DNA from: a virus
Lineage: Duplodnaviria; Heunggongvirae; Uroviricota; Caudoviricetes
IMG/VR virus record: IMGVR_UViG_3300037418_001222
DNA length: 64,000 nt
Strand: one strand, 5' to 3'
Part shown: piece after piece, positions 10,042-62,462 of the stretch
Layout of the letters: the number at the start of each line of letters is the position of its first letter
Position numbering within the stretch: the stretch's first letter is position 1
Notes under the pieces: model-generated
Told to the model about the DNA's origin: nothing
Seen by the model: the letters and a program-made list of their open reading frames with translations, nothing else
Database searches by the model: none
Translations under genes and position numbers: made by a program

Positions 10042-10051
10042 AATACCCAAC

Positions 10052-10757: not shown

Positions 10758-10785
10758 ATTCTAATGGGTATGGAGGAAATGTCAA
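10758..10785 (-). promoter_or_regulatory. sigma70-type early promoter, conserved cassette (minus: TTGACA-N16-TAGAAT)
   Basis: Minus strand reads TTGACAtttcctccatacccatTAGAATagg; drives the protease gene. Confidence 0.6.
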
Positions 10786-10885
10786 CAACTTTATTTTCGC
10801 CGACGAACGGACACCTGCATGGCGAGGCACAGCCCGGAGATGATCAGTAGCTCGACGACAGTGACTATTCCCATCACGGTGCTCG

Positions 10886-11086: not shown

Positions 11087-11106
11087 CGGCCACCTCCTAT
11101 TATCAG

Positions 11107-11136
11107 AATACTAATCTGACGGTGGAGAAATGTCAA
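11107..11136 (-). promoter_or_regulatory. sigma70-type early promoter cassette (TTGACA-N17-TAGTAT)
   Basis: Minus: TTGACAtttctccaccgtcagatTAGTATtctgataataGGAGG. Confidence 0.6.
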
Positions 11137-11151
11137 CGGCTTTATTTTTGT

Positions 11152-11466
11152 TTATGCCGGAGTGAACTCGTCCTCTTCGTCGTTCAGGAAGAACTTCACG
11201 ATCGAGTAGTCATACTCGGAATCGCTCCTCTTATCCTCGGATCGAGTGTCAAAGATGCGACATCCCGAGTCGTATCCTCGTCCTCCAATCTCGACGAGAC
11301 GAATCTCCCAGAGCGCTCGAACCCAACCCTGTCGACCCCATGAGTCGAGGTAGTCGTACACCTCCTCCTTCGCCTCGCTCAGCGTCTCTCGCTGAAAGTC
11401 GTGAGATCGGTGACCACGATAGTTGTCCGGATCGTACACACAATACAGCAGTAGAAATCGTCTCAT
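11152..11466 (-). CDS. hypothetical protein (104 aa)
   Basis: ORF, GC-rich. Confidence 0.45.
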   Translation of the reverse strand: MRRFLLLYCVYDPDNYRGHRSHDFQRETLSEAKEEVYDYLDSWGRQGWVRALWEIRLVEIGGRGYDSGCRIFDTRSEDKRSDSEYDYSIVKFFLNDEEDEFTPA

Positions 11467-11870
11467 GATACCTCTCCTGGTAGCCTACGACCAATCGTTC
11501 CATCGATGAGCTCGACGGACTGGACGTAGGTGTGCTGAAACAACCAACGAAAGAAGTCCTCGGGGTCGTGCCACGCTCCAGGAACCGGATCGAGCATCAC
11601 GACTACTTCGAGCTTCATCGTCGACGCGATCGGTGACACCGGGTAAGCGTTCGGGTTCTTCCTAGCCATAGCAATCGAACCTCCTCTCAGCATCGCCATC
11701 TCGTAGCACCGAAATATGGCGGTAGCCTCTCCATCAATCCCAGCCTCATCGAACTGTCGGAGCGCGTCCGGAACATTCTTCGCGGTGCACATCCACAGAT
11801 CCGAATCGGCTCCATAGACGATTAGATACGTGCTCTCTTCTTCCATGTCTACCTCTCCTATCCAATACAC
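11463..11870 (-). CDS. hypothetical protein (135 aa)
   Basis: ORF; 4-nt ATGA overlap with the downstream gene. Confidence 0.5.
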   Translation of the reverse strand: MYWIGEVDMEEESTYLIVYGADSDLWMCTAKNVPDALRQFDEAGIDGEATAIFRCYEMAMLRGGSIAMARKNPNAYPVSPIASTMKLEVVVMLDPVPGAWHDPEDFFRWLFQHTYVQSVELIDGTIGRRLPGEVS

Positions 11871-11872
11871 CC

Positions 11873-11901
11873 ACTCTAATAGGCGCTGGATGAAATGTCA
11901 A
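11873..11901 (-). promoter_or_regulatory. sigma70-type early promoter cassette (TTGACA-N17-TAGAGT)
   Basis: Minus: cgccTATTGACAtttcatccagcgcctatTAGAGTgggtgtattggataGGAGAGG. Confidence 0.55.
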
Positions 11902-11910
11902 TAGGCGATG

Positions 11911-12258
11911 TTATAACCAAGTAGCGCAACAGCGAGGATCCTCGCTGTACTTGATCCATCGCTTCACGAAACCGTTGCCGAACGTCATCGCTCCTTCCTC
12001 TCCATCGAGGCTCGGGCTCGTCCACCAGAATGCTCCTCGAGGCTCGCAGCGCAGCACATTGATGGCGATGATTTCCGCGGTCTTACCACCGCTGTGCGGA
12101 TTAAAACCAGGATCATAATGCAGTCGTAGCAGCGCCTCGCAGAACGTGTCGACCTCATCCTTGTGGATGATCTCCTTGTTGTAGGAGTTGCTGTTCTGAA
12201 AGAGATACTCGACGATGCAGAAGTCGCTGACAGGGAGCGAAGAATAATCTGGTCTCAT
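11911..12258 (-). CDS. hypothetical protein (115 aa)
   Basis: ORF. Confidence 0.5.
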   Translation of the reverse strand: MRPDYSSLPVSDFCIVEYLFQNSNSYNKEIIHKDEVDTFCEALLRLHYDPGFNPHSGGKTAEIIAINVLRCEPRGAFWWTSPSLDGEEGAMTFGNGFVKRWIKYSEDPRCCATWL

Positions 12259-12385
12259 GTCTACCTCTCCTTAGAAGAGTGGTGGCCGACGGGAACAGGG
12301 AAACGCCAACCACCACTCATCGAAAGAGAGTCGAAGCTCGAAGGAGGGTCGGGGTCGAGACTCCGTAGCCCCGACCCCTTCCCCA

Positions 12386-12691
12386 TTAGCGACCGAGCTC
12401 GAAGGGCTGGGTCAGTTCGATGAAGCCGTGAGCCGCATCGTGACGGACGTCGTCCATCCGATAGCCGGCGGCGAACAGCGCGGCGACGGTGACGGGCTTT
12501 CCCTTCGCGGCCTTGCAGGCCTTGATGAGAGCATCGTACCGCACCGCCGAAGCCGAACCGGGCTTCTTGGGGTTGGTGGAACCCTTTTCCGTCAGGGTGA
12601 CCGTCGACCCTTCGCGCCACTGGGTGCGCTTCGACTTGGTCTCGGCCTCGGCATTCTCGATCACTTCCGCTTCGTTGGTCTTCGGCATTTC
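12386..12691 (-). CDS. hypothetical protein (101 aa), second member of the NPKKPGS paralog family; start trimmed from the ORF-track 13063 because that ORF reads through the promoter
   Basis: RBS aaaAGGAGGtaagtgaaATG (MPKTNEAEV...); ...NPKKPGSASAVRYDAL...GYRMDDVRHDAAHGFIEL. Confidence 0.5.
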   Translation of the reverse strand, partial: EMPKTNEAEVIENAEAETKSKRTQWREGSTVTLTEKGSTNPKKPGSASAVRYDALIKACKAAKGKPVTVAALFAAGYRMDDVRHDAAHGFIELTQPFELGR

Positions 12692-12737
12692 ACTTACCTC
12701 CTTTTCCGCATCGGGGTAATTCCCAATCGGTATGATC

Positions 12738-12765
12738 AGTCTATACAAACCGGAAGAAATGTCAA
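12738..12765 (-). promoter_or_regulatory. sigma70-type early promoter cassette (TTGACA-N16-TAGACT)
   Basis: Minus: gttaTTGACAtttcttccggtttgtaTAGACTgatc. Confidence 0.5.
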
Positions 12766-12865
12766 TAACTTTTTTTTCGATATTGAAGATACTGCTACCG
12801 TCGAAGATTCCCCTTATACACGCGCGGACGTAATTCCTTTTATCTACACGCGAAGGCCTACTAGT

Positions 12866-12988
12866 GTCGTCGTCTCGGCTATCATTTCTATATACGCGAG
12901 ACGACGACAGTACACGCCGAGCGAGCGAGCGAGCGAGCGTACAGCCGTCTCGCGACGAGCGTACTGATGATGGGTCTCGCGACGAGCG
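12866..12988. repeat. non-coding repeat block: 13-bp perfect inverted repeat, (GAGC)5 microsatellite, 15-bp direct repeat x2
   Basis: TGTCGTCGTCTCG (12866-12878) / CGAGACGACGACA (12897-12909); gagcgagcgagcgagcgagcg at 12919-12939; GTCTCGCGACGAGCG at 12947-12961 and 12974-12988. Confidence 0.6.
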
Positions 12989-13122
12989 AGCTGAAAGATT
13001 TTGTTCGATGATGTGTGAGTGAGCGAACAGCGCCGCGAGCGTCTCATTGAGTTGGATGGCCACGTCGAGCGATCATACGTGGGAGCGAGCGAGATGACGG
13101 TTGTTTTCATAACAGGGATTCT

Positions 13123-13282
13123 TAACCATGTGGTTTAATTACAACCTGAAGTTCTTTCTTCAGCTCATCGATTTCTTGTCTCTGTCGTATTATAGTACGA
13201 GCCATCGATACGATATGTCCTGGATGCACGCTCGTTAGTCCGTCTAGAGACTTCGCTATCGTCGCTACAGCATTATCGGTCA
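13123..13282 (-). CDS. hypothetical small protein (52 aa; not in ORF track)
   Basis: Hand-translated MTDNAVATIAKSLDGLTSVHPGHIVSMARTIIRQRQEIDELKKELQVVIKPHG; start overlaps the upstream stop. Confidence 0.25.
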
Positions 13283-13570
13283 TCGATTCTTCTTCCATAC
13301 CGTCTTATCGAACCACGAGCGCATCTGTTTCAACTTACGGAGAGATGGCATTCGATAGAATCTGACAGGATTTCCATATTCGTTATATGGTTCGTGACGG
13401 AAGCCGTATGTTCCTTTGTAGTCGATTTCTTTGATCTCGGAGACGTGATAAGTTCGTTCGTGTTTCCAGACGTCGATTACGACTACGTGAGACTCGTCTA
13501 CACAGCGAACTACGCGTCCCGGTATGAATAGGTCTTCTCCACCGACGTCGACTATCGTGTTTCGCCTCAT
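13280..13570 (-). CDS. hypothetical protein (96 aa)
   Basis: ORF. Confidence 0.45.
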   Translation of the reverse strand: MRRNTIVDVGGEDLFIPGRVVRCVDESHVVVIDVWKHERTYHVSEIKEIDYKGTYGFRHEPYNEYGNPVRFYRMPSLRKLKQMRSWFDKTVWKKNR

Positions 13571-13848
13571 GAGTTACTCGATAGCTTGTTCTCAACGGCA
13601 TCCGCGAGCTCGCCGAACGTGCTCTTGTTGAGTATGTATCTTGGCGGATCGGGGATCATTCGATAGCATCCGTCGAAGCCTCTCCAATCATCCGGACCGA
13701 CGTTTGGATCGTCACTTCGCCCTGTCTCTTTCAGGAACTGAGCCATGGCACATCTCTCGGGAGAGAGGTAGTTGTACTTCTCGTCTCTGGGCTTCGTCTT
13801 CACCCAGTCCAAGAACTCTCGCGCCGTAAAGTCGAGGTTGGCCATCGT
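13567..13848 (-). CDS. hypothetical protein (93 aa; start trimmed to the RBS-preceded ATG)
   Basis: aaAGGAGAaagaacgATG (MANLDFTAREF...). Confidence 0.45.
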   Translation of the reverse strand, partial: TMANLDFTAREFLDWVKTKPRDEKYNYLSPERCAMAQFLKETGRSDDPNVGPDDWRGFDGCYRMIPDPPRYILNKSTFGELADAVENKLSSNS

Positions 13849-13927
13849 TCTTTCTCCTTTTCCTACTCTCCGAACTTCTCTTGGATCGTTAGAGTTCTCG
13901 AGGATTTGATAAGTCTTGCTCGGCATA

Positions 13928-14395
13928 TTAAACCTCATGGTTAAGTGTTCTCGAGTTCCGGTTGTTCGTTTGATTCCTCCGAATCCACTGGTTCGCTTCA
14001 TCTTCGCTGATGAAGCCACGCCAAGTGATTTCGTCGACCCTCACTCGACTCATGAGACCAGAGCGACGACCGCACGCTGGACATGAAGCTGACATCTCGT
14101 AGATGTACCAGCGTTCATCTGTCCCATGAAATACCGTCTGATATTGAACGGCAGGAGCACCAGGTCGGTTAATGACTCTAGGTAGCTCTCGAGCGTTTGA
14201 TTGAAGGATAAATCCAGAAGCCGCCATGATCATACACGACGTCTCTCGATATTTCTTTACGTACTCGATTGGAGCTCGAACCTCGAGACCCCCGTCAAAA
14301 GACGGACCGTCGATAACGACTACCTCTTCTCCTGTCGACCAAACAACCGGTTTATCCCAGTCTACTGGTTCGACGGGATTCTTGAAGTCGATCAT
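13928..14395 (-). CDS. hypothetical protein (155 aa)
   Basis: ORF. Confidence 0.5.
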   Translation of the reverse strand: MIDFKNPVEPVDWDKPVVWSTGEEVVVIDGPSFDGGLEVRAPIEYVKKYRETSCMIMAASGFILQSNARELPRVINRPGAPAVQYQTVFHGTDERWYIYEMSASCPACGRRSGLMSRVRVDEITWRGFISEDEANQWIRRNQTNNRNSRTLNHEV

Positions 14396-14409
14396 CGCTT
14401 AGGTCCTTC

Positions 14410-14754
14410 TTATAGCATCTTCTCGATGTAGTCGGCGATCTCTTCGAACGTCTTTCCTTGGTCGTTCATATCGGCGAGTCTGTTTACAATGGTGGCTCTA
14501 TATGATCCGTCTCGAGCCGGTGGTGGGAGTCCTACTGAAGCGCATAATTCGTCAGGAGGTAATGAGCAATTACCATCACACATACGATAACCATCGTAAA
14601 AATTTTCGTCCCATTTTCCGGCGACATCAACAAGGACACCCAGGCAGCACATCTTATTACTGCCTGCCATAGCGAGGTGTCCATCGAGTTGTGTGTACTC
14701 TCCAGAACGAAGAGCCGATACCCACTTCGCTTTGATCTCCGGGTTCATTGGCAT
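14410..14754 (-). CDS. hypothetical protein (114 aa), paralog of 5945-6325; start trimmed because the ORF-track start lies inside the promoter
   Basis: AGGTGGtctgaaaATG; KWVSALRSGEYTQ...CCLGVL...NDQGKTFEEIADYIE. Confidence 0.5.
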   Translation of the reverse strand: MPMNPEIKAKWVSALRSGEYTQLDGHLAMAGSNKMCCLGVLVDVAGKWDENFYDGYRMCDGNCSLPPDELCASVGLPPPARDGSYRATIVNRLADMNDQGKTFEEIADYIEKML

Positions 14755-14779
14755 TTTCAGACCACCTCCTATTATCAGT

Positions 14780-14809
14780 ATTCTAATCTGATAATGAGAA
14801 AATGTCAAT
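14780..14809 (-). promoter_or_regulatory. sigma70-type early promoter cassette with embedded stem-loop (TTGACA-N17-TAGAAT)
   Basis: Minus: gcctaTTGACAttttctcattatcagatTAGAATactgataataGGAGGTGG; ATTATCAG/CTGATAAT inverted repeat brackets the -10. Confidence 0.65.
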
Positions 14810-14814
14810 AGGCA

Positions 14815-15027
14815 CTATTTCGGTTGATACCAGCCGGCCAGGATCATCGCTCGATCCCATTTCTCTCTATTGTCTTTGCTCAGTGCCGGTAGAAATGGAT
14901 GTTGACCATTTCTCTCGTAAGTAATGGAATCGACATAAGCTTTCGACCTCGGTTTATATCGTTTGCAGATGATATTGTCTCCATCCACTTCGAATTCGAG
15001 ATGAAAGCGAGGTGCTTCGTCTCTCAT
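14815..15027 (-). CDS. hypothetical protein (70 aa)
   Basis: ORF. Confidence 0.4.
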   Translation of the reverse strand: MRDEAPRFHLEFEVDGDNIICKRYKPRSKAYVDSITYERNGQHPFLPALSKDNREKWDRAMILAGWYQPK

Positions 15028-15175
15028 GATAGAGTCTCCAGCGATTTCTTGAGTTTGTTTTTATTTTGACATAGAAGAGGAAAGTTGTGGCGATGACGAG
15101 CTTCTGCTAGAGATCCAATACGAAGTCTCTTACCGCAAAGGCATTTCGTATATTCAGACCAGTGGCGGCGGGCGC

Positions 15176-15478
15176 TCATTTTTCGTCCCTCAGATCTTCA
15201 GTGACTTCGAATGTTCCACCCCTCTGTAAACAGAGTTGAATGAAGCAATCCTTGCACACGCTCATCGAGCCGAGTATTCCATCATCTGACTTTGTTTCAG
15301 TCACAATGAGCTCGGGTTTATTTCTGCACCGCCACATTCTGTCACTTCGGCGCGCACCACCCACTTTCTCGCCCGTCACCGGATTTTCTCCAGCCGGTCC
15401 AAACGCGAATGGCGACCACGTCTTATTGGGACGTAGTGCCTGACACTGAGTACGATCAGGCGGTGTAAGATCTGTCAT
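15176..15478 (-). CDS. hypothetical Cys-rich protein (100 aa)
   Basis: ORF. Confidence 0.45.
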   Translation of the reverse strand: MTDLTPPDRTQCQALRPNKTWSPFAFGPAGENPVTGEKVGGARRSDRMWRCRNKPELIVTETKSDDGILGSMSVCKDCFIQLCLQRGGTFEVTEDLRDEK

Positions 15479-15744
15479 GATATTCCCTCGAATAGAGTAG
15501 CCTCGAGCGCCTCACCGACCGTGATCGCATCTGGTTCGACCCAGTCGCCGTTGGCCTCCTGAACGAGTATCGTCTTTCCGGTGAGACTGAGTCGATCATC
15601 GAGGATCATCATCATTTCAGAAATGTTCGTCCCGACGATAACATCGACTGTAATCCAACAGTCCATAATGAACTGCAAGACACAGACCATAATACCACCA
15701 TCGTCTAGCTTCGTGGCCGTGACCCGATACGTAATATTATTCAT
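15475..15744 (-). CDS. hypothetical protein (89 aa; start trimmed to MNNITYR with GGAGG RBS)
   Basis: cgaggcGGAGGccagcATGaataat; removes the 89-nt overlap with the upstream ORF. Confidence 0.45.
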   Translation of the reverse strand: MNNITYRVTATKLDDGGIMVCVLQFIMDCWITVDVIVGTNISEMMMILDDRLSLTGKTILVQEANGDWVEPDAITVGEALEATLFEGIS

Positions 15745-16135
15745 GCTGGCCTCCGCCTCGATAGCCTCCCGGCATCTCGTCATCCTCATCTGGTTGGAAG
15801 CAGTCGGTATACAGCTTCGCCTCACTTAGGCGATCCTTCACGATTTCGATTCCGATCTTCTCGAGGGCCTCATCGAGTGTCTGGAACTCACCCAAGTCCT
15901 GAGAGTCATATTCGGCAGGATGTTCGTATGTTTGATATGAGATCTGGACGTCTTTGGATACCAACCATCCGGTCTGCTCGTCGAAGCATTTCGATTCCGG
16001 AGGCCACAGTTGATAGTTGTTCGATATCCTATAAGATCCTTCCTCGTCAGAGAACGCGACCTCGCCGAGCCACATATATTCGGCGAAGGTGCCTATGAAG
16101 AGCTTGTCGCGCTCTTTCTGCTTCTCGTCTCTCAT
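15737..16135 (-). CDS. hypothetical acidic protein (132 aa)
   Basis: ORF. Confidence 0.5.
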   Translation of the reverse strand: MRDEKQKERDKLFIGTFAEYMWLGEVAFSDEEGSYRISNNYQLWPPESKCFDEQTGWLVSKDVQISYQTYEHPAEYDSQDLGEFQTLDEALEKIGIEIVKDRLSEAKLYTDCFQPDEDDEMPGGYRGGGQHE

Positions 16136-27012: not shown

Positions 27013-27183
27013 TTAATCCATATGAAGAGAGTGGCCGTCATCATTCATCGACCTGATGTGTCGATGATTGTTCCTCTCGAGTGATCCTCTCACTCTCATC
27101 ATTCCGATTGGGGAGATCTGGCGAGGAAGCCGAATTCGAAAGATATGTCCGTACTGGTTTACGGATTCAACGATAATGTCCAT
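27013..27183 (-). CDS. hypothetical small protein (56 aa; not in ORF track)
   Basis: ccatGGAGGTGGattgATG after promoter 27211-27239; hand-translated MDIIVESVNQYGHIFRIRLPRQISPIGMMRVRGSLERNNHRHIRSMNDDGHSLHMD. Confidence 0.3.
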   Translation of the reverse strand: MDIIVESVNQYGHIFRIRLPRQISPIGMMRVRGSLERNNHRHIRSMNDDGHSLHMD

Positions 27184-50030: not shown

Positions 50031-50957
50031 TCAATCATCATTCGCGAGTTTTTGGAAGTATGATAGAGTATCTTCTACATCATCGGATGCAGTCGTATCA
50101 AATGGAGACGCAGCCTCTTCATGAGTAGTTCCAAGATCGAATGGAAGATCATTTTCATCTTCCGCGCGAGCATTGGCTCTTTGATGAGCTGGTGCAGACT
50201 CGAATCCAAGTCCAAGAACCTGGTCTAGTTTCTTCTTTAGTTCATCAAATGACTTGAAGTTCTCAGGAGCAAGAATCGCCTCGAGTGAGTGACACTGCTT
50301 CCAGATATTCTCAAGCTGATCATCATCTTCAGAGATAGATGAAGGTTCATCGAACTCTGACTTATCATAGTTACGATATCCTTCAACCTGACGAATCTTG
50401 AGCTTGAAATTAGCGCCCTCCCACATATCAAATGGGTTCATTGGCTTCTCATCTTCGAACTCTGGGTTCATCTTCTCGTTGAGCTTATTGAAGATCTTCT
50501 TTCCGTACTTGTACTTGAAGACCTTACCTTCGTTCTCTGGGTTAGACGCATCCTTGACTACGAGGATGTTAGATACGAAGTGAAGGCGGCGCTTCTGCTT
50601 ACGAGCTTGCTTACGCTCAGGAGAATTATCATCCTGAGAAGCATTCCAAAGCTTTCCATTGAATTGAGCGACAGGATCTTCCTGTCCGATAGAAGTCAGT
50701 GAGTTCTCAATATACCACTTACCAGTTGGTCCCTGGAATCCGTGATCCCAGTATCGTACATATGGAGAGGTTTCACCGGCTGGTGCAGGTAGAAATCGAA
50801 TTACCGCGTACCCATTTCCTGCTTTATCGACTGTAGGAGACCAGAATGTCTCGTCCTTGGTACGCTCATTACCCTTAGTGAGCTTGTCTAGTTCGCCTGA
50901 TAGTTTTTCGAAAGCTTGTTTTCTATTTTTACGTAATTCAGCAAAGTTATTTACCAT
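50031..50957 (-). CDS. gp32: single-stranded DNA-binding protein gp32
   Basis: AGNGYAVIRFLP, GKWYIE, SNILVVKDASNPENEGKVFKYKYGKKI and WEGANFKLKIRQVEGYRNYDKSEF match T4 gp32 blocks. Start trimmed to MVNNFAE (the ORF-track N-terminus overlaps the neighbouring endonuclease gene). Confidence 0.85.
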   Translation of the reverse strand: MVNNFAELRKNRKQAFEKLSGELDKLTKGNERTKDETFWSPTVDKAGNGYAVIRFLPAPAGETSPYVRYWDHGFQGPTGKWYIENSLTSIGQEDPVAQFNGKLWNASQDDNSPERKQARKQKRRLHFVSNILVVKDASNPENEGKVFKYKYGKKIFNKLNEKMNPEFEDEKPMNPFDMWEGANFKLKIRQVEGYRNYDKSEFDEPSSISEDDDQLENIWKQCHSLEAILAPENFKSFDELKKKLDQVLGLGFESAPAHQRANARAEDENDLPFDLGTTHEEAASPFDTTASDDVEDTLSYFQKLANDD

Positions 50958-51603
50958 TTGTATATCCTTGTATAACAGTATATCCGAGTTTTTCTTTTCG
51001 GTATTTGAAAATGCTAGAGGCCGATACATTAACAAGTTTTGCTGCTTTACTAGCCGGCATGTTAATAGTAGCGAGAAGAAACTCCCGAGTCAATGGGAGC
51101 TTTCTCCACCCTTTGTTTGGACCAGGATTACGCTTTCTTGAAGCACTCATCTTGGCTCTAACTTCAGGTCTAGAAAGAGCTTCTCTGGCTCTAGCTGCGT
51201 TCATAATTAATTTTGCTTCGTGTTCTGGACTCTTTGATCCTTTCATCGAAGCTATGTGTTCCTCACTAAACGGAACACCTTTAATGTGACCACCAGATTG
51301 TCCATTACATGGACCTCCACTAGTAGCATTAATCCATTTTGGATTATTCACAACTTTTAGCCGCTTTAGAACTTTATGTTCCCAAGCTTGAGCTTTAGCT
51401 GGTAGATCGAAAACTTTTCGGATTTCAAAGAAGTAATCTTCAGGATTCTTCTTGAATTTGATACGGAGTCTCTTACTGGAGGTGAAATACGTTTTACCTA
51501 AATCTGAAGGATTATAATCCCTAGCAAAACGGACTCCATAGTAGCACCTACCAGAAGACTTTTCAACGATTAAGTATGTGTACGGTATTCCTGTATAACT
51601 CAT
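50947..51603 (-). CDS. GIY-YIG-like homing endonuclease with NUMOD-like repeats and C-terminal HTH (Seg-like)
   Basis: IPYTYLIVEKSSGRCYYGVRFA is a GIY-YIG variant; SEEHIASMKGSKSPEHEAKL repeats; C-terminal ASKAAKLVNVSASSIFKYRK. Adjacent to gene 32. Confidence 0.55.
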   Translation of the reverse strand: MSYTGIPYTYLIVEKSSGRCYYGVRFARDYNPSDLGKTYFTSSKRLRIKFKKNPEDYFFEIRKVFDLPAKAQAWEHKVLKRLKVVNNPKWINATSGGPCNGQSGGHIKGVPFSEEHIASMKGSKSPEHEAKLIMNAARAREALSRPEVRAKMSASRKRNPGPNKGWRKLPLTREFLLATINMPASKAAKLVNVSASSIFKYRKEKLGYTVIQGYTNGK

Positions 51604-51775: not shown

Positions 51776-52141
51776 TCATGTTCCAGTATAATTCTCCCAC
51801 CTATCCCTCATTCTTTGAATAACCTCTTCAGGAACATTATGAATATTTCCATGATTTCCCTCAATGGTAATCACAGTATGAGGATATGGAAGGTCTAGAT
51901 ATCTTTGAAATTCCCAGAGACGAGTAAAAGTATTACTTACAACAGTATCAAAACCATCTTTCAAGGATCTAACAACTTCATGAAAACACTTATCATGACA
52001 GGAATGGTCTGTTGGATCGAATACATATTCTCCATCCTTAAACCTGAACTGATCGGATTCATAGTGGGGAATCCCCATGTTCTTAGCAAAAGTAGACTTT
52101 CCTGATCCCGGAAGACCTCTTACAATATACAAGTGTGCCAT
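51776..52141 (-). CDS. P-loop kinase-like NTPase (121 aa; Walker A GLPGSGKST)
   Basis: MAHLYIVRGLPGSGKSTFAK... resembles small nucleotide/nucleoside kinase (AAA_33-like) folds; start trimmed to the ATG overlapping the upstream stop. Confidence 0.5.
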   Translation of the reverse strand: MAHLYIVRGLPGSGKSTFAKNMGIPHYESDQFRFKDGEYVFDPTDHSCHDKCFHEVVRSLKDGFDTVVSNTFTRLWEFQRYLDLPYPHTVITIEGNHGNIHNVPEEVIQRMRDRWENYTGT

Positions 52142-52614
52142 TACGATTCTAGCTTCTCTACTTTCCATTTAGGCTTCATATCTGTGGAGCATCCACACTC
52201 ACAGATAAGATTCGCCGAGTCAATCACCATATCATCAGAAATCTCTGTGAAGAACTTCTTCTCTATGTCATCAAATGTATTACCGTTTTGTGGATCTAGA
52301 ATTTTGAATCCATCCCAGAATATGGAATGAGTTCCTCCTTCGTTATTCACTGACTTGACCGATAGAATAGCTCTACGCCCAAATAACATCTCTCTCCAAA
52401 AAGAGTTACTGATTCGGTGATTATGGTCATAAACGTTTTTATAACATACATCAAGATGATTTAGAATAGAGCTTGCATGAGTCCCACTTGAAGAAGTGTA
52501 TGCTCCGCTTATACTTGCAACATTCAAGACATAGTCATAATCGAGACCAGTGGCCATAGCTACAGAAGCTATGACACACTGATCATTAGTCTTTTGGTTA
52601 ATTAAATCAGGCAT
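52141..52614 (-). CDS. putative papain-like (C39-like) cysteine peptidase
   Basis: QKTNDQCVIASVAMATG (Gln ... Cys nucleophile spacing as in C39), later GGTHSIFWDG (His) and D/N. Confidence 0.4.
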   Translation of the reverse strand: MPDLINQKTNDQCVIASVAMATGLDYDYVLNVASISGAYTSSSGTHASSILNHLDVCYKNVYDHNHRISNSFWREMLFGRRAILSVKSVNNEGGTHSIFWDGFKILDPQNGNTFDDIEKKFFTEISDDMVIDSANLICECGCSTDMKPKWKVEKLES

Positions 52615-54028
52615 GCTCTTCTCTAAGAATTTGTTGAACCTTTGATGGATTTAATTGAAGCTTGGCGCGTTCTCTGATCTCGTCGAAGGTCGTTTTATTG
52701 AAGAGTTTGCCATTAACAAATCTTTCAACCAAGAGATTCTCCTCGCTTCCAAGATCCTTTGAGTTAATAGTCTTGTACTTCCCATTGTCTCTAATGAGCG
52801 CCAACATTCCCTTCTTAGATCTCTTTCCCGAGTCGGTAATCGGATCCTTGAAAACATCTACCCATGTACCATTAATCTTAGCGGCCGAACATTTCATGGC
52901 GAATTTGAGCGTATCTCGATTCACTTGCTGAAGTAGAGCTCCACCCTGGCCAAATGCAACATTGTCTGCGCTATATCCGGAGAGAGTTAGTGAGAAGAGA
53001 ATAGACCTGATACTCTTATGATCAATTCCATCTCCTTGGATTATCCTTACATTATTAAGAACCTTGAATCCCTTTGAGTTAATCGTATGTCCAAAGTATT
53101 GATCAAGGATCTTAGCGCACTGAGTCACCACCACAGAAGGATCACCAGAGTCCGGTCGAATAACTACAGTCGCTCCAGAATGAAGAACGTCTGCCTTTAG
53201 CATTGTTCCCCATTTTCGGCAGGCTCTATAGATGTCGTAAGAGTCTGAAACGCATGCGACAAGACCACCTGGTTTAGCGTGTTGTTTGAGCATGTTTCTG
53301 AACGATGCTTCTTCACCGTCACGACCCCATGAGGTGACCGTTGAGTGTTCCATAGCAGGAATACTGAATCCCACTGGACCTGATGCTCCATAATGTCGCA
53401 TGATATGGCTGAGCGCTTCGACGGTGTCCGTGCCCATAAAATTGATAAGGTGTGCTGTTCCGCCAATTGCCGCAGACTCTTTAGAACTGACGCCTCTCGC
53501 TCCGAAATCGTGGAGCTTGAAACCAATTCCAGCAGGGTCTCCAGTTCGCTCCAGCGATTCAAGAATGATCTCCTTTGAGTGATACGAATTAGATGCGACA
53601 GTGGTTGGATACCAAATTGCCCGAAGCAAAGCCGTCTCAAGAAACGAAGTCAGCCACCAACACTTTGGATCGGTGTTCACAATAGTAACGAGTACATTCG
53701 ATGGTGGAAGAACGGTTCCCTCGTCAATTCCCATGATACTAACCGGAAGACGACCATTGTGGACCAAACGAATGTATTCCCATCCCTCTCGATAGAAAGG
53801 TAGTCCGTGCGCCGTTACGATTGCTTCAGCTTCATCGATCATCTCTAACGTAATTGGATTATCTCGAAGATAATGAAGAAACGGTTGAAGACCATTGTAT
53901 ACGATCTTGTCGTATTGGCCACCACGAGACTCGATGTATGAATACACATACTCAGTTCCCTCTGGATATTGGTTCCACTGAGAGTATTTGTACGAGTCGG
54001 TGTCTAGAATAATGTTATTTTGTAGCAT
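52607..54028 (-). CDS. nadV: nicotinamide phosphoribosyltransferase (NAMPT/NadV)
   Basis: N-terminal ILDTDSYKYSQWNQYP signature and 473-aa length typical of NAMPT. Confidence 0.85.
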   Translation of the reverse strand: MLQNNIILDTDSYKYSQWNQYPEGTEYVYSYIESRGGQYDKIVYNGLQPFLHYLRDNPITLEMIDEAEAIVTAHGLPFYREGWEYIRLVHNGRLPVSIMGIDEGTVLPPSNVLVTIVNTDPKCWWLTSFLETALLRAIWYPTTVASNSYHSKEIILESLERTGDPAGIGFKLHDFGARGVSSKESAAIGGTAHLINFMGTDTVEALSHIMRHYGASGPVGFSIPAMEHSTVTSWGRDGEEASFRNMLKQHAKPGGLVACVSDSYDIYRACRKWGTMLKADVLHSGATVVIRPDSGDPSVVVTQCAKILDQYFGHTINSKGFKVLNNVRIIQGDGIDHKSIRSILFSLTLSGYSADNVAFGQGGALLQQVNRDTLKFAMKCSAAKINGTWVDVFKDPITDSGKRSKKGMLALIRDNGKYKTINSKDLGSEENLLVERFVNGKLFNKTTFDEIRERAKLQLNPSKVQQILREEHA

Positions 54029-54069
54029 GTAAAACTCCTTTACAATTTTTGAGAGTAAGTGTCTATCAC

Positions 54070-54255
54070 TTACTTTACGTAAACTTTTTTGTCACTTTGT
54101 GGGCATTTAATAAAACGGCAAAGATCAGATCCTCCGGCGTAATCATAATGTATGAATTCATTAACTTCAGATAAGAGGTACTCAAGAATTGATGAACAAT
54201 TCTTACAAGTGACTCTATGAACATATTGGGGATCAGATCCAATAACCTTAACCAT
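54070..54255 (-). CDS. zinc-ribbon small protein (61 aa; CKNC...CRFIKC)
   Basis: Two Cys pairs. Confidence 0.4.
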   Translation of the reverse strand: MVKVIGSDPQYVHRVTCKNCSSILEYLLSEVNEFIHYDYAGGSDLCRFIKCPQSDKKVYVK

Positions 54256-55210
54256 TCACTTTCTCCTGTGGAACGTGAACCTGCTTCTTACCAAAACCGG
54301 CTGATGGTTTTGCCTTATCTGGATTTTGCTTCATCCAATCCTGGACAAACCAAAGCTGACCACATCCACCACCAATTGTATCCTGTCCAGCAGGATCAAA
54401 TACACGAGTGTCATATCCACGAGATACAAGCTTTTCTGCAAAGTCCACTGCCAACTTTCGCTGAAAGTCATTAGTCGCTGGCATACCATCATTACGCTCA
54501 CAAATGACTGAAACCGTAGCACTAAATGCGTGTGGGGCAAATAGTTTAACTAGACGATCAACGTCTTCATCGGAAGTATTATCTTCGTGCGCACAATAGT
54601 TAAAGAACGGCTTTCTCTCATTAGAGACAGCAGTCATCCAAATCATTCCCTGAATAGCCATATCTTGTAGGTCCCACTTATTTTTAAATGGAACGAGTTT
54701 ATTTCGAGCTTCATCAGTAGATTCGTGTACAGAAAATTGCAAACCAACTGTTGGAATTTCTGCAGATGCTTTTAGGAATTCGTGCCAACTCTCTGTTCCA
54801 GATACGTTAGGTCCAGAAGTAGATACGAGCAGTCGGGCATGGGGATACTTCTCATAGAGCGTATACATCGCTGGAATGAGAGCCTTCAAGTTAAGAAGAG
54901 GTTCGCCCATTGACATGAACATCACCTGGAGCTTCTTCATATCTGAAGCACTCACTCCGGTCTGCTCGATGGAATAATCAACTTGATTGACAATTTCCTC
55001 AGAGGTAAGGTTCCGAACGAAATAGTCACCAGCTCCACAGAAACGGCAGCCAACCGGACAACCCGACTGAGTAGAACAGCAGATAACAGTCCTCTCTTCG
55101 TAAGTTGGATATCGATAGAGCACGCTCTCCGCTACGGCGTTATCTTTCGAATAGACGAATTTTGCTACGTTCTCTGCCTCGTCATCAATTCGCTTAATGT
55201 TATTCCACAT
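54248..55210 (-). CDS. radical SAM methyltransferase of the RlmN/Cfr family (N-terminally truncated relative to RlmN)
   Basis: CPVGCRFC (CxxxCxxC), MSMGEPLLN, LVSTSG, SVHE and C-terminal GGGCGQL correspond to RlmN blocks CALGCKFC, MGMGEPLLN, LSTSG, SLHA and AACGQL (recalled from memory). Confidence 0.65.
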   Translation of the reverse strand: MWNNIKRIDDEAENVAKFVYSKDNAVAESVLYRYPTYEERTVICCSTQSGCPVGCRFCGAGDYFVRNLTSEEIVNQVDYSIEQTGVSASDMKKLQVMFMSMGEPLLNLKALIPAMYTLYEKYPHARLLVSTSGPNVSGTESWHEFLKASAEIPTVGLQFSVHESTDEARNKLVPFKNKWDLQDMAIQGMIWMTAVSNERKPFFNYCAHEDNTSDEDVDRLVKLFAPHAFSATVSVICERNDGMPATNDFQRKLAVDFAEKLVSRGYDTRVFDPAGQDTIGGGCGQLWFVQDWMKQNPDKAKPSAGFGKKQVHVPQEKVNG

Positions 55211-55221
55211 ATCAAAGATCC

Positions 55222-56271
55222 TTATTTCGCTAGAGGAATAAAGTGAGTGATAATATCATAATGGTCGTCAAAGAGAAGTTCTCTCTTAATATCTACGAAT
55301 GGGACCCATCGAGCCTTCTCAGCGTCATCCGATCCCTTGATCTTAGGAAGTTTCCACTCTCCACCTTGTAGACCAATATGAGCTGCAAAAGTGATAGACC
55401 TACCCAGCTGAGATCGTCCTTTAGCAGAGAAGTTCTCAACCTTCTTGATACATCCTCTTAAGACTTTTTCTGGAACATCGATGCACGTCTCTTCCTTAAG
55501 TTCTCGGATGATTCCATCAATTGGAGTATTATCTTTGATAGCATCAAAGTATCCACCGGGAAGCGCCCAGAGACCGCGACCGGGATGAGCTCTCCTCTTG
55601 ATAAGGAGAATGTGTCCAGATTGGACCACAACTGCGTCGCATGTAACGGCGACAACTGGATATGGAAGAAGTCCTCTATATCGTTCCTTGCAGGCATCGA
55701 TTATCTTCTTTTCATCCATAATATTCTGGTAATGTTCAGTCTCTCGAAATAAACGAAGAAACTGTAGAACTGAAGTAGGAACAACCCCAACCAACCAACT
55801 CTCGTTATAACATGGAGAAAAGTATAGGTTTCGAATGTCTGTAGCGTTCAGAATCTCAACGGGCTCGATGTCGATATATTCCCATTGAGGGAACATCTCA
55901 AGATACTCCTTGGTCTCATTGTCCTTCTTGTGACCAATGAGACCAACGACTCCATTCTCATGTTTACTAACGATATTTTGAATTCTGGCAACCCATCCAT
56001 CATCATCATAGAGAGTATCTACGTTATATTCGATAACAAATGACGCTAGAGTAGAATCAGATATTCTACGTAATTCTGGGATCATCATCTTATGACGCTC
56101 CTCAACCGTCCACGGATTCTTCGGTGAACGGGGTGCGTATGCAGATCCAATGATGATGATTACTTGCTTAGCGAGCTTTCCAGCTCTTTCGAGTAGCTCT
56201 ATATGAGCTTTATGGAGACCTTGAAATCTCCCGAGTACGACTAGTGTATCATATTTCTTATTCATTCGCAA
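55222..56271 (-). CDS. natV: bifunctional NMN adenylyltransferase / Nudix ADP-ribose pyrophosphatase (NadM-Nudix, NatV-like)
   Basis: N-terminal nucleotidyltransferase GRFQGLHKAH (HxGH); C-terminal Nudix box GGYFDAIKDNTPIDGIIRELKEETCI. Confidence 0.8.
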   Translation of the reverse strand: MRMNKKYDTLVVLGRFQGLHKAHIELLERAGKLAKQVIIIIGSAYAPRSPKNPWTVEERHKMMIPELRRISDSTLASFVIEYNVDTLYDDDGWVARIQNIVSKHENGVVGLIGHKKDNETKEYLEMFPQWEYIDIEPVEILNATDIRNLYFSPCYNESWLVGVVPTSVLQFLRLFRETEHYQNIMDEKKIIDACKERYRGLLPYPVVAVTCDAVVVQSGHILLIKRRAHPGRGLWALPGGYFDAIKDNTPIDGIIRELKEETCIDVPEKVLRGCIKKVENFSAKGRSQLGRSITFAAHIGLQGGEWKLPKIKGSDDAEKARWVPFVDIKRELLFDDHYDIITHFIPLAK

Positions 56272-56318
56272 AACTCCTTTGCGTTATCACAGAACGAGTC
56301 TATCTCGTTCTTCCTTAT

Positions 56319-57149: not shown

Positions 57150-57980
57150 TTACTTGTCGATTGAAATCATGGGAGTGCCATTACCCATGACCTGGGGAAG
57201 GTGCCCGTCCCACTTCTCGAGTTTGGTCTGCTCAAGGATCTCAGGATTAGAGCGAATGGCATCACCCTTGATCTGCATGGCCTTAGCATCACCCTCGGCT
57301 TCAGCAATCTTGGCATTAGCATTTGCCTGAACAGTAGCCACGTTAGCCTGAGCCGCGAGCGCCTGCTGTTCATTAGCGATCTTAGCATTGATCTGCTGCA
57401 TCACCTGATCCGGAACTCGAATATTCGAAGCCCAGTAGAGCTGATCGACGACGAGTCCATAAGGAGCGAAGTACCTCTGAACATCAGCAAGAGCCTTATT
57501 AGCGAGCTCTGCCTTACGAGGTCCATAGATATCCTCAACTCCCATCTGAGAGGCTTCCTCGACGATAGCATTTCGAACAGAGTTCCTCAATGGACCAGCT
57601 ACGATTCCATCCATATCGGTACGATACTTCTGGAATAGAATCGGCGCCTTGGCCGCGTCGACATGATAAGCAACAGCGACGTCGGCAGTCAGACCAAGAC
57701 CATTCTTATCCTGGAAGGTGATCTCCTCGTTATTAGCCTTGCCCTCGTCTGAGGAGCGAGTCCAAGTATATGTAGAGGTGAACACCGGATATTCGTAGAT
57801 GCTGGTTCCAGGAAGAGTGACATACTTTCCGACAGGAAGAGCAACGTTAGATACGCCAGCCGAACTACCGAAGTTCGAAACCTTAATACCAACATGCCCG
57901 GGATGAACACTGGAGCAACTGGTTAGTCCTCCGATGATGAGGAACAAGACAAATGCTACCGCACCAATTAATTTACCCAT
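57150..57980 (-). CDS. SPFH/band-7 (prohibitin-like) lipoprotein
   Basis: Signal peptide plus lipobox GGLTSC; SPFH core followed by a coiled-coil Ala/Gln-rich tail (QQALAAQANVATVQANANAKIAEAEG). Confidence 0.65.
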   Translation of the reverse strand: MGKLIGAVAFVLFLIIGGLTSCSSVHPGHVGIKVSNFGSSAGVSNVALPVGKYVTLPGTSIYEYPVFTSTYTWTRSSDEGKANNEEITFQDKNGLGLTADVAVAYHVDAAKAPILFQKYRTDMDGIVAGPLRNSVRNAIVEEASQMGVEDIYGPRKAELANKALADVQRYFAPYGLVVDQLYWASNIRVPDQVMQQINAKIANEQQALAAQANVATVQANANAKIAEAEGDAKAMQIKGDAIRSNPEILEQTKLEKWDGHLPQVMGNGTPMISIDK

Positions 57981-58500: not shown

Positions 58501-58910
58501 TTATTTGTCCTATTAAGGATATCAGAAACATTGTAATTCTTTGGATCAGGAACCTCGTCGAAATTGACATATGATGATAGTCTTATCTCTAAGAAGCGTG
58601 ATCCATCTAGTTTATATTGCCAAATAGAGACGAGCCCATTCATAGTTATCCATGATCCAAACTCTTGAGCTATAAAAGTATAGTCAGAACCAGAATATTG
58701 TAAAATATAGAGCCATTCTACATCATAGAGTTTTGGAGGCCTCTTTCCTTGTTCGGCGGCATCAACGATCTGGAGCTTGAGCTCCTCTATCTTCATTCTA
58801 TACCAATTGATTCGGTCTTGACTCATTTGAGATTTGATAGTATTCGCAAACTTCTTTCCAAGAGCGAATTTATCACTCTGATAGTCACCGGATGCGACAG
58901 AAATAATCAT
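58497..58910 (-). CDS. hypothetical protein (137 aa)
   Basis: ORF. Confidence 0.45.
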   Translation of the reverse strand: MIISVASGDYQSDKFALGKKFANTIKSQMSQDRINWYRMKIEELKLQIVDAAEQGKRPPKLYDVEWLYILQYSGSDYTFIAQEFGSWITMNGLVSIWQYKLDGSRFLEIRLSSYVNFDEVPDPKNYNVSDILNRTNK

Positions 58911-59491
58911 ACATTCTCCGAGAACTTCTCTACGACGATCTTTCTAAACTTAGATGCGTCATACTTCATGAATGGTTGATACTTTATTATCTTCCTACGA
59001 ATATCTTTCCAGATGGGGTCGTATTCTAGTGAATTATTCCACCGTCCAAAAGCTTTCGTAATATGGAGGAGAATAATGAGCGACTCCAGAGAAACTTGTC
59101 CTCCGAGGTACTTTTTAAGTAGTGGAGGATGTCCTCCAGCTTCCATTCTAAAGTTGTCGTCAAAGTTCGGCTCGAGGAGTTCCATTTCACATCTAAAATT
59201 GTAGGAAAGCGCTTGGTTCCTCTTGAGCCAGTCTTTGTATCGTCTTTCTGATGCGTCATTTGTAACTAATTCTCCAATCCAAATGCTTGGATCATTAATA
59301 AGATTTGCTAGGATGAATGATTGAGGATCTCTATGCTTAGATAGTTTATCGAAATAGAACTTGTCTCTTCTATTCTCAAATGAGTTTACCGAGGCAGATA
59401 CCTTACCGTTATACTTGAAGAAGCTGTAAGAGTCTCGAGTGAAGTGTTGCTTAAGAGCTAGATAGAGTTTGTAGACCTCGAATGGTGTCAT
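58907..59491 (-). CDS. hypothetical protein (194 aa)
   Basis: ORF. Confidence 0.5.
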   Translation of the reverse strand: MTPFEVYKLYLALKQHFTRDSYSFFKYNGKVSASVNSFENRRDKFYFDKLSKHRDPQSFILANLINDPSIWIGELVTNDASERRYKDWLKRNQALSYNFRCEMELLEPNFDDNFRMEAGGHPPLLKKYLGGQVSLESLIILLHITKAFGRWNNSLEYDPIWKDIRRKIIKYQPFMKYDASKFRKIVVEKFSENV

Positions 59492-59592: not shown

Positions 59593-59808
59593 TTATTTCT
59601 CTGAATCGTTAACATAATTATGTCCAACGTATCCAGCACATGATAAGAATCGATTAAATATCTCTGCTAACCTATCATGAGTGATTGCCTCTCCTGATAT
59701 AGAGATATCTAATGTTTCTGGTGAGTCATTATCACAAGTTCTAACCATAGAGAACTTGAACGTCTCACAAAGATCTTTAACAATATCTTGTTGCATGATT
59801 ACAGGCAT
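59593..59808 (-). CDS. hypothetical protein (71 aa)
   Basis: ORF. Confidence 0.4.
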   Translation of the reverse strand: MPVIMQQDIVKDLCETFKFSMVRTCDNDSPETLDISISGEAITHDRLAEIFNRFLSCAGYVGHNYVNDSEK

Positions 59809-60299
59809 TATCGTCTCTTCCAGAAATTAAGGTGTTCAAGTAGTGGATTCAACCAATTTGTCATAACACAGAAGTTAGTATCAAATGGTGGCTTATGATG
59901 CTTGGCGTGTTGTTTGGGTGACTGAAGTATTCCAGTTTCTTGAAGTAGTTTAATAGCCTTTGGAGCCTTAGACGGTCTATGAGAGAAGTAGTGTATTTCA
60001 TTTGCTATAGCAGAACCAATCAAGAAAGTTATAGAGAAGACAGAAAGACCGAATAGAAGAAACCACATAGATCCAACTATGAGTGCAGTAACTATTGCGG
60101 CGAGATTGCGACCAATAAACCCATTCTTCTCAAATGCTAGAGGTTCTTTATGGTGAAGAGCATTAGGAACTATTATCCACTTACCAATTATCGGCCAGCT
60201 CTCATTTCCAAACGTATCTTCCCACCAGTGGAATACACCAGTGGCTAGGTCAGCTAATAACCATCCAAGAACTATCTGGCCTACGATTGAAAAGATCAT
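59808..60299 (-). CDS. His-box integral membrane protein of the fatty-acid desaturase/hydroxylase superfamily (TMEM189/CarF-like)
   Basis: Four His clusters (HWWED, HHKEP, HYFSH, HAKHH) separated by TM segments; 163 aa. Confidence 0.45.
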   Translation of the reverse strand: MIFSIVGQIVLGWLLADLATGVFHWWEDTFGNESWPIIGKWIIVPNALHHKEPLAFEKNGFIGRNLAAIVTALIVGSMWFLLFGLSVFSITFLIGSAIANEIHYFSHRPSKAPKAIKLLQETGILQSPKQHAKHHKPPFDTNFCVMTNWLNPLLEHLNFWKRR

Positions 60300-61137: not shown

Positions 61138-61213
61138 TGGAGCCCCCGCGGGGAGTCGAACCCCGTGCTGCTGGTTTAGAAGACCTGCGCCCGAAATCCG
61201 TCGGCGAGGGCTC
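61138..61213 (-). tRNA. tRNA-Arg (anticodon UCU), 76 nt with encoded CCA
   Basis: Minus strand GAGCCCTCGCCGACGGATTTCGGGCGCAGGTCTTCTAAACCAGCAGCACGGGGTTCGACTCCCCGCGGGGGCTCCA. T-arm CGGGG-TTCGACT-CCCCG; anticodon arm CAGGT-CTTCTAA-ACCAG places UCU at 34-36. Acceptor and D-arm need wobble or shifted pairs. Confidence 0.65.
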
Positions 61214-62109: not shown

Positions 62110-62433
62110 GGAGAAGCTTTCGTTTGAATGAAGTGGGAGCTTCTGTTGCTAGGTGCTCCCGAACCCCGGAGACCTGATTAGGCAGCTAGTGCCATGTCTC
62201 CAGCGAACGAGTTATCGTTTGCGTTTACTTTTTTGATCTGTCTAGGTAGATCAAACCTGAACGAAGAATTCTACTAATCATCTTACGTCGAAACCATTCG
62301 CCCCCATATCTATTTTGTTGGTGGAGGCGGAGGGTAATGAGCCCTCGTCCGTACAAACTTTTGTAGTTTCTATTTACGTCCATTATTCACCATCAGCATT
62401 TCTGCATCAGGTAGAATTTCTAATCTATTTATT

Positions 62434-62462
62434 CTTATACTACACTATTCTTAAAATGTCAA
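62434..62462 (-). promoter_or_regulatory. sigma70-type early promoter (TTGACA-N17-TATAAG) with ~330-nt leader
   Basis: Minus: cttgTTGACAttttaagaatagtgtagTATAAGaata. Confidence 0.5.

Follow-up and report, generated by a model that had tools for sequence, protein, structure and literature searches.

An RlmN/Cfr-type radical SAM gene embedded in a NARP2-type NAD+ reconstitution operon of a T4-like phage: a candidate recurrent accessory

Depletion of nicotinamide adenine dinucleotide (NAD+) is among the commonest abortive-infection strategies of bacteria. How phages restore it, by NARP1, NARP2, NARP3 or the macro-extended NARP1-AP, is under active study. NARP2 was described in Vibrio phage KVP40 as a two-gene pathway composed of NadV/Nampt and NatV/Nmnat-Nudix (Osterman et al., bioRxiv 10.1101/2024.02.11.579819). 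NARP1-AP combines Adps and Namat with the macro-domain phosphatase Adpp, an optional third gene present in 15% of NARP1 operons that widens the pathway to include a non-canonical product of NAD+ breakdown (bioRxiv 10.64898/2026.01.28.702374), while NARP3, the riboside route in phages, uses a NadR-like enzyme with PnuC (PMC13464706). Here we analyse a stretch of 64,000 nucleotides from the IMG/VR virus record IMGVR_UViG_3300037418_001222 (hereafter the window), in which a nicotinamide phosphoribosyltransferase (NAMPT) gene and a gene for a bifunctional nicotinamide mononucleotide (NMN) adenylyltransferase (NMNAT)/Nudix protein (NadM) enclose a gene for a radical S-adenosylmethionine (SAM) enzyme of the RlmN/Cfr type, called rSAM in the following. 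As in KVP40, a NAMPT-family phosphoribosyltransferase and a bifunctional NMNAT-Nudix protein are encoded on the same strand in one phage operon, but the two core genes of the window are parted by the rSAM gene and by a small zinc-ribbon gene. NARP1-AP offers a likeness of another kind, namely an optional third gene inside a minority of NAD+ reconstitution operons; the accessory of the window is however an RlmN/Cfr-type rSAM, without known activity on ADP-ribose (ADPR) derivatives.

The two core genes were assigned by family profiles. NAMPT scored 606.6 bits against the NCBIfam model PRK09198, above the 405-bit cut-off, and matched the Pfam domains NAMPT_N and NAPRTase as well as phrog_448 (5e-160). 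NadM matched Pfam CTP_transf_like (1.4e-9) and NUDIX (4.7e-14) and phrog_395 (9e-69); its match to the NCBIfam PRK05379 models of bifunctional NMNAT/Nudix proteins (2e-95) fell under the curated cut-off, and its translation shows the HxxH and NATDIR motifs and the REx2EE core of Nudix enzymes. The NadM gene, which probably starts at the ATG at 56265, lies 1.2 kb upstream of NAMPT on the same strand. Among the 80 IMG/VR loci with the most similar NAMPT (the NAMPT loci), NadM was found within 10 kb of NAMPT in 74, usually at less than 1 kb. Identity to the NAMPTs of KVP40-like Vibrio phages was only about 44%. A neighbour-joining tree of 46 NAMPT-like proteins, with no reference NARP1 sequence among them, placed the window NAMPT in a NadM-partnered clade, apart from a Prs-partnered clade. 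The original prediction, made from the sequence of the window, had recognized here the known two-step NAD+ salvage pair, and the PRK09198 and Pfam matches bear this out: by its sequence the pair is an ordinary NARP2 pair of an already known kind. Family membership and the published biochemistry of the KVP40 homologues allow its activity to be predicted. NAMPT would convert nicotinamide and phosphoribosyl pyrophosphate to NMN, the NMNAT domain of NadM would adenylylate NMN to NAD+, and the Nudix domain would split ADPR into AMP and ribose-5-phosphate; together they would let the phage replenish NAD+ after the action of host NADase defences.

The gene embedded in this pair encodes a class-A radical SAM enzyme with the fold of RlmN and Cfr, which it resembles more closely than it does other radical SAM enzymes. 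RlmN forms 2-methyladenosine (m2A) at position 2503 of 23S rRNA (m2A2503) and at position 37 of tRNA (m2A37), and Cfr forms 8-methyladenosine at the same rRNA position (m8A2503). The phage protein keeps the CX3CX2C motif and the equivalents of E. coli C118 and C355: residues C51, C55, C58, C44 and C283 align with their RlmN counterparts and were invariant in 34 homologues. The alignment to RlmN begins near residue 88, with position 80 of the RlmN model at its start, and the structural model shows only beta strands before the core; the helical N-terminal (helix-hairpin-helix/winged-helix-like) domain of about 60-80 residues is missing. Members of the family, 309-337 residues long, differ further from RlmN and Cfr by an identity of about 25%, by a conserved C-terminal tail of their own, by their link to NAD genes and by their occurrence on phage contigs. 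In metagenomes the clade is represented by over 120 clusters (identity 65% or higher), most of which come from contigs of phage size, and one homologue was found in a region of a Bradyrhizobium genome with phage-like replication genes. Scores of 95.8 and 81.2 bits lie far under the curated equivalog cut-offs of RlmN (290 bits) and Cfr (530-550 bits). The residues that distinguish Cfr from RlmN and discriminate C2 from C8 specificity have been listed (PMC12887959); a prediction from these residues failed, the phage clade fitting neither enzyme. Given the missing N-terminal domain, the scores under the equivalog cut-offs and the differing specificity positions, we assign rSAM, at the level of sequence, to a third, N-terminally truncated and phage-associated clade of the RlmN/Cfr family. 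Such a clade is relevant in that the family is clinically important. Cfr confers multidrug resistance at the ribosome.

The phage enzyme probably performs an RlmN/Cfr-type C-methylation of an adenine. By analogy with its relatives, one SAM would methylate Cys283 and a second, cleaved at the CX3CX2C cluster, would yield the 5'-deoxyadenosyl radical. Addition of the methylene to C2 or C8 of the adenine would follow, with Cys44 resolving the adduct. In two database records, OR529408.1 (phage BUCTxx99, 96510-97469) and OQ436456.1 (JGB6), the rSAM gene is labelled 'prohibitin family protein', which looks like an annotation transfer error.

The association of rSAM with NAD+ genes was assessed by clustering all open reading frames of 97 rSAM loci. 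The commonest neighbours were NAMPT (20 loci) and NadM (18), followed by macro-like and NADAR genes (9 each) and Prs-like genes (6), while the remaining clusters were restricted to single lineages. For comparison we used the family of the P-loop kinase encoded in the same operon. After dereplication at 80% identity, flanks of at least 5 kb being required, a NAD gene lay within 10 kb in 12 of 39 rSAM loci against 4 of 36 kinase loci (Fisher p = 0.05), and within 1 kb in 8 of 39 against 1 of 36 (Fisher p = 0.03). At least four gene orders were observed (NadM-rSAM-NAMPT, NadM-NAMPT-rSAM, rSAM-NadM...NAMPT, rSAM-NAMPT and Prs-rSAM-NAMPT), always on the same strand and frequently within a few hundred bases, and the NAD-linked loci are dispersed across the rSAM tree. 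The linked NAMPTs belong to two clades, one NadM-partnered and the other Prs-partnered without NMNAT nearby. Four loci (L095, L289, L075 and L115) illustrate the second type, with rSAM beside a Prs-like gene and a NAMPT-like gene of the separate clade. Prs-like and NAMPT-like genes without NMNAT are the operational signature of NARP1 (Adps and Namat), and on this signature, judged without a reference Adps or Namat sequence, we call these cassettes NARP1-like. The slot between NadM and NAMPT also accepts other genes: it was occupied by a macro-like gene in 9 of the 80 NAMPT loci.

Fusions of rSAM emerged from a profile search of 1.8 billion representative proteins. The protein P0260 (locus L280, 2043-3449) joins rSAM, 40% identical to that of the window over 301 residues, to a C-terminal Nudix domain. 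Its gene stands in a row of abutting genes in the order AdpP-like Nudix, rSAM-Nudix, NAMPT-like and NMNAT-only, the Nudix domain thus being carried by rSAM instead of by the NMNAT. P0344 (759 residues, on a JGI/Logan contig of 8,950 bp) fuses a distant, truncated RlmN-like rSAM to a dGTPase-like (dGTP-triphosphohydrolase) HD domain. The other long or partial rSAM homologues that were scanned for fusions revealed nothing informative beyond these Nudix and HD cases. We also noted P0336 (218 residues), in which a reverse-transcriptase domain comes after an N-terminal piece of rSAM, suggesting that a group II intron or retroelement interrupts the rSAM gene in some contig.

On this basis, we propose that the locus is a NARP2-type operon with an embedded rSAM as recurrent accessory, the kinase and a peptidase of the same operon being passengers, a reading to which we give a probability of about 0.6. 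These sequence comparisons give modest support to rSAM as an accessory that recurs, without being obligate, in cassettes of the NARP2 and the NARP1 type. We lean towards a functional coupling between rSAM and NAD+ reconstitution, given the Nudix fusion and the embedding of the gene in NAD+ operons of two distinct mechanisms, and the precedent of Adpp in NARP1 renders accessory genes in such operons plausible. The original prediction had suspected a functional module larger than the described two-gene pathway, comprising the rSAM, peptidase and kinase genes. This idea survives for rSAM, through its recurrence and the Nudix fusion; it does not extend to the kinase and the peptidase, neither of which occurred within 10 kb of NAMPT in any of the 80 NAMPT loci.

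As to the substrate, we slightly favour an adenine in RNA, either tRNA or rRNA, because all characterised relatives act on RNA and because the gene also lives alone among tRNA genes. rSAM would then bring a second, translation-directed takeover or counter-defence activity, co-transcribed and co-transferred with the rebuilding of NAD+. A free ADPR- or NAD-type nucleotide is the less likely substrate, kept in consideration by the NAD partners, the fusions to nucleotide hydrolases and the lost N-terminal domain. With its presence in operons of the NARP1 and NARP2 types and its single fusion to Nudix, rSAM is thus a candidate either for a pathway extension or for a linked second counter-defence activity. 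The link between rSAM and NAD+ reconstitution is apparently an undescribed variant. A radical SAM or RlmN-like partner is not mentioned in the NARP1/NARP2 preprint (bioRxiv 10.1101/2024.02.11.579819), nor is a radical SAM partner in a survey of viral NAD+-ADPr systems (PMC9503650) or in the aRES preprint with its four supplementary files (bioRxiv 10.64898/2026.01.28.702374). Full-text literature searches returned no description of the link either, although their coverage was incomplete and such an absence is no proof of novelty.

A number of observations weigh against this proposal and for an rSAM acting as an autonomous tRNA or rRNA adenine methyltransferase without tie to NAD+, whose co-location would result from the clustering of accessory genes in hyperplastic regions and from vertical inheritance. 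The association is a minority feature, and a modestly significant one: only 14 of 80 IMG/VR rSAM loci have a NAD gene within 10 kb, rSAM is present in only 5 of the 80 NAMPT loci (in all five between NadM and NAMPT), and NAMPT accompanies only 2 of the 30 loci of a more distant rSAM subclade. Stenotrophomonas phage ANB28, whose genome is complete, carries rSAM within a cluster of tRNA genes and near RtcB, and has no NAMPT, NadM, Prs, macro or NADAR gene. The isolated phages BUCTxx99, Arash, Vibrio 249E41-1 and Ahp1 likewise carry rSAM without NAD genes beside it, and it was in metagenomic loci that the link came to light. tRNA genes lie within 10 kb of rSAM in 27 of 96 loci, and in locus L029 its neighbours are Thg1, an RNA ligase and tRNA synthetases. 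Moreover, the base rate of co-location among the accessory genes of large phages is about 10%, as judged from the kinase control family (NAMPT within 10 kb at 6 of 80 loci) and from Band_7 genes (near about 10% of the NAMPT loci and of the kinase loci alike). These two figures led us to reject a chance rate of less than 2% for NAMPT near a random gene, and the claim of enrichment was therefore scaled down to the dereplicated Fisher tests, with p values of only about 0.03-0.05. Synteny within the closest T4-like clade may simply be inherited, and the rSAM-Nudix fusion is known from one 90% cluster only, on two JGI contigs. Finally, rSAM matches neither Cfr nor RlmN at the positions that set C2 or C8 specificity, and this difference, together with the missing N-terminal domain, makes its substrate and the methylated position unpredictable.

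An autonomous enzyme nevertheless accounts poorly for the rank of NAMPT and NadM as by far the top neighbours, no other widespread phage family recurring, or for an adjacency kept over at least four gene orders and in NARP1-like as well as NARP2-like cassettes. It also leaves aside the position of the gene between the two core genes and the fusion to Nudix inside a NAMPT/NMNAT operon. We consider it the best of the alternatives, yet rather unlikely, and retain rSAM as a recurrent accessory of NAD+ reconstitution.

A bolder alternative makes rSAM a true extension of the pathway. In conjunction with Nudix, it would carry out the C-methylation of NAD+ or ADPR, of a non-canonical product of NAD+ breakdown or of an immune signal that contains adenine. 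Its partners are consistent with this, the neighbouring genes being those of ADPR- and NAD-handling proteins (NadM-Nudix, NAMPT/Namat, Prs/Adps-like, macro and NADAR), and so are the Nudix fusion in L280, the fusion of a distant member to a dGTPase-like HD hydrolase, the loss of the helical N-terminal domain of RlmN/Cfr and the precedent of the macro phosphatase Adpp extending NARP1. Hosts already carry RlmN, a point that likewise counts in its favour. To our knowledge, though, every characterised class-A radical SAM methylase has an RNA substrate. These enzymes are slow and consume two SAM and a reductant per turnover, which would make the bulk conversion of a millimolar pool implausible, and the gene is also present without any NAD gene in ANB28. 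An extension of the pathway is for these reasons doubtful. The same caution applies to its most specific form, an unlikely reading in which the phage clade would be no rRNA or tRNA methylase at all but a dedicated third component of NAD+ reconstitution, acting with the Nudix domain on an NAD+/ADPR-derived adenine, for example that of an NAD-capped RNA end, of an immune signal based on ADPR or of a non-canonical product of NADases. If an NAD+/ADPR substrate were true, rSAM would be the first class-A radical SAM methylase with a small-molecule or cap substrate, and the NAD+ arms race would gain a new layer.

The setting of rSAM in its operon agrees with co-expression of the genes. All five open reading frames of the original prediction were confirmed on the minus strand, and its family assignments for the RlmN/Cfr-like rSAM, the C39-like peptidase and the P-loop kinase hold; the zinc-ribbon frame was missing from its gene list. 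The coordinates are given in Table 1. From NadM to the kinase, the successive junctions are an 11-nt gap, an 8-nt overlap (ATGGTTAA) of the rSAM stop with the zinc-ribbon start, a 41-nt gap, a second 8-nt overlap and a TAATG at 52139-52143 in which the peptidase stop overlaps the kinase start. Because the packing is so tight, the six genes from 51776 to 56271 very probably form one transcription unit. The TAATG overlap further implies that the peptidase and the kinase are translationally coupled in the window; in the relatives examined their two genes are never adjacent. Scans for consensus promoters and terminators yielded sites no more numerous than in shuffled sequence, and PADLOC returned nothing informative. 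A perfect 8-bp hairpin, AGAACGAG-TCTAT-CTCGTTCT (56291-56311), was noticed inside the 47-nt gap directly upstream of NadM.

Table 1. Genes of the NAD+ region of the window and of its flanks
Feature	Position	Strand	Remark
gp32 single-stranded DNA-binding protein	50031-51035 (probable start near 50957)	-	Pfam gp32 annotation of L005, L023 and L279 homologues
GIY-YIG homing endonuclease	50947-51603	-	phrog_314 8e-12
121-aa stand-alone P-loop kinase, polynucleotide-kinase type	51776-52141	-	phrog_2071; AAA_33
157-aa C39-like (papain-fold) cysteine peptidase	52141-52614	-	assigned by fold; without Pfam match
NAMPT/NadV nicotinamide phosphoribosyltransferase	52607-54028	-	first NARP2 enzyme; PRK09198, Pfam, phrog_448
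61-aa zinc-ribbon protein, CxxC...CxxxxC	54070-54255	-	phrog_2834 1.9e-12
RlmN/Cfr-type class-A radical SAM enzyme (rSAM), without helical N-terminal domain	54248-55210	-	TIGR00048 2.5e-27
NadM-type bifunctional NMN adenylyltransferase/Nudix (ADP-ribose pyrophosphatase-type)	55222-56271	-	second NARP2 enzyme
SPFH/Band_7 protein	57150-57980	-	Pfam Band_7 4e-26
gp59-like gene	58907-59491		flank of the region, as in T4-like phages

The tight packing and probable co-transcription (TAATG, 8-nt overlaps), and the position of the kinase within 1 kb of a NAD+ reconstitution gene in 3 of 80 kinase loci (NadM in L247, NAMPT-like in L265, Prs-like in L274), are what could be said for the weakest reading, in which the five genes form one extended NAD+ pathway with the kinase phosphorylating nicotinamide riboside, or another nucleoside, for NMNAT; it is very improbable in view of the profile, the neighbours and the distribution of the kinase, of the unrelated contexts of the peptidase and of the NadR-like enzyme and PnuC employed by NARP3. 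The kinase frame spans 51776-52168, and homologues begin at the ATG at 52141, giving a protein of 121 residues. A profile of 60 homologues was compared with the PDB: the matches were confined to polynucleotide and tRNA kinases and included Pnkp1 (7e-5), mammalian PNKP (2e-4), the kinase domain of CthPnkp (3e-4), T4 Pnk (3e-4 to 9e-4) and PSTK, all with weak E-values, around 1e-4. Neither NadR nor nicotinamide riboside kinase (NRK) was among the 51 PDB matches at E ≤1 or among the NCBIfam and Pfam matches. The choice left open by the original prediction, between the riboside kinase of NadR and a polynucleotide-kinase-like enzyme, thus falls on the polynucleotide/tRNA kinase side. Residues K24, S25 and D39 do not vary, and at least 90% of the sequences retain R123; the P-loop GxxGxGKS, the conserved Asp D39 and the Arg R123 are shared with T4 Pnk, Clostridium thermocellum Pnkp and Capnocytophaga Pnkp1, from which the window kinase differs as a stand-alone protein.

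The neighbourhood of the kinase family points the same way. A calcineurin-like metallophosphoesterase occurs in 31 of 80 kinase loci, and RNA ligases of two families are present in 19 and 17. Phosphoesterase, RNA ligase and kinase make up the classic healing-and-sealing RNA repair set, and this adjacency to phosphoesterases and RNA ligases marks the family, as far as its sequence context tells, as belonging to the RNA-repair type of cassette. No phosphoesterase or RNA ligase homologue was found within the 64-kb window. The closest homologue (74% identity) stands beside Band_7 and near a CCA-adding/poly(A) polymerase-type gene, about 22 kb from the NAMPT of that phage. Of the kinase, L005, a relative of the window, retains only a P-loop remnant of 21 residues, MPHLYIIRGLSGSGKSTFAKR followed by a stop (3654-3719), and L023, the closest relative, lacks the gene.

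The peptidase had also been counted in the NAD module, and this does not stand up. Only four relatives were retrieved from 5.8 billion proteins, a phage-borne family whose genes adjoin RNase H/PhoH genes or terminase genes, none near NAD genes. Q7, C13, H96 and D107 are invariant, and the papain-like fold presents these Gln, Cys, His and Asp residues in the C39 arrangement, while sequence and profile searches gave no match in Pfam, NCBIfam or the PDB. Unlike the C39 domains of the bacteriocin ABC exporters PCAT1, ComA and LahT, the protein has an extra C-terminal CxC cluster, and no ABC exporter or double-glycine substrate gene was found near it. The synteny of the five genes in related phages therefore separates them: the kinase and the peptidase are not syntenic with NAMPT and NadM, whereas rSAM keeps its place between the two in part of the relatives. 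Two attractive leads are thereby removed, the kinase as riboside kinase and the peptidase as member of the pathway.

The zinc-ribbon gene follows the module more loosely. Its overlap with the rSAM stop suggests translational coupling to rSAM, and homologues lie inside the modules of L024, L026 and L030, and in Mesorhizobium phage Cp1R7A-A1 a homologue immediately follows NAMPT. Other homologues, in RB43 and Pyxpy02, have unrelated surroundings, and a role as specific partner of rSAM found weak support.

The window proteins recur at 100% identity on a JGI contig of 177,910 bp, and its gene content indicates that the region is the variable interval between gp59 and gp32 of a T4-like phage of about 178 kb. 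No match at the DNA level was obtained when the region was compared by megablast with 50,697 phage records, and synteny was therefore compared at the level of proteins. In L023, whose rSAM is 90% identical, the order is gp59, NadM, rSAM, NAMPT, one unrelated frame and gp32; in L005 (76% identity) it is NadM, rSAM, NAMPT, an 85-aa frame, the P-loop remnant and gp32. From these two gene orders we take NadM-rSAM-NAMPT as the conserved core and the stretch from NAMPT to gp32 as the varying part. The NAMPT of L023 (10994-12378) is broken into two frames, by a frameshift or an assembly error.

In the window, a GIY-YIG homing endonuclease shares the stretch from NAMPT to gp32 with the peptidase and the kinase. 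It lies between the kinase and gp32, its end overlaps the start region of gp32, and it is missing at the equivalent position of L023 and L005. We regard it from this comparison as a mobile insertion that marks the interval as variable, gp32 being the conserved backbone boundary. The kinase, the peptidase and the endonuclease would all be lineage-specific insertions between NAMPT and gp32 with no role in NAD+ metabolism. NUMOD3/HNH endonucleases were seen inside the NAD module of two other loci, L278 and L024.

On the other side of the module, just upstream of it, the window has a Band_7 gene. Such a gene also comes before NadM in relatives, directly in L278 and L279 and at a distance of a few kb in L030. 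It adjoins the kinase in L032 and stands about 3 kb from rSAM in phages BUCTxx99 and ANB28. Membership of Band_7/SPFH in the NAD module was rejected, the gene being equally common at kinase and NAMPT loci and rare near rSAM loci. It is best seen, on these distributions, as a generic accessory gene that is the upstream neighbour of NadM in this T4-like lineage.

A permuted, two-piece transfer-messenger RNA (tmRNA) of alpha-proteobacterial type was detected at 62132-62458 on the minus strand (Rfam alpha_tmRNA 111.6 bits, tmRNA_permuted 115.5 bits), with the tag peptide ANDNSFAGDMALAA according to ARAGORN. The alpha type of this permuted tmRNA suggests an alphaproteobacterial host. ARAGORN also called a tRNA-Arg(tct) at 61138-61211 (-) and a tRNA-Ile(gat) at 27022-27105 (+); the tRNA-Arg call was absent from the Rfam scan of 50-64 kb at the gathering threshold. 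A lipid desaturase/fatty-acid hydroxylase-like membrane protein is encoded at 59808-60299 (-; Pfam Lipid_desat 4.8e-42). Farther away, the stretch from about 10000 to 16000 holds many small open reading frames at a G+C content of 0.49-0.55, compared with 0.37-0.45 elsewhere in the window, and may have been acquired horizontally.

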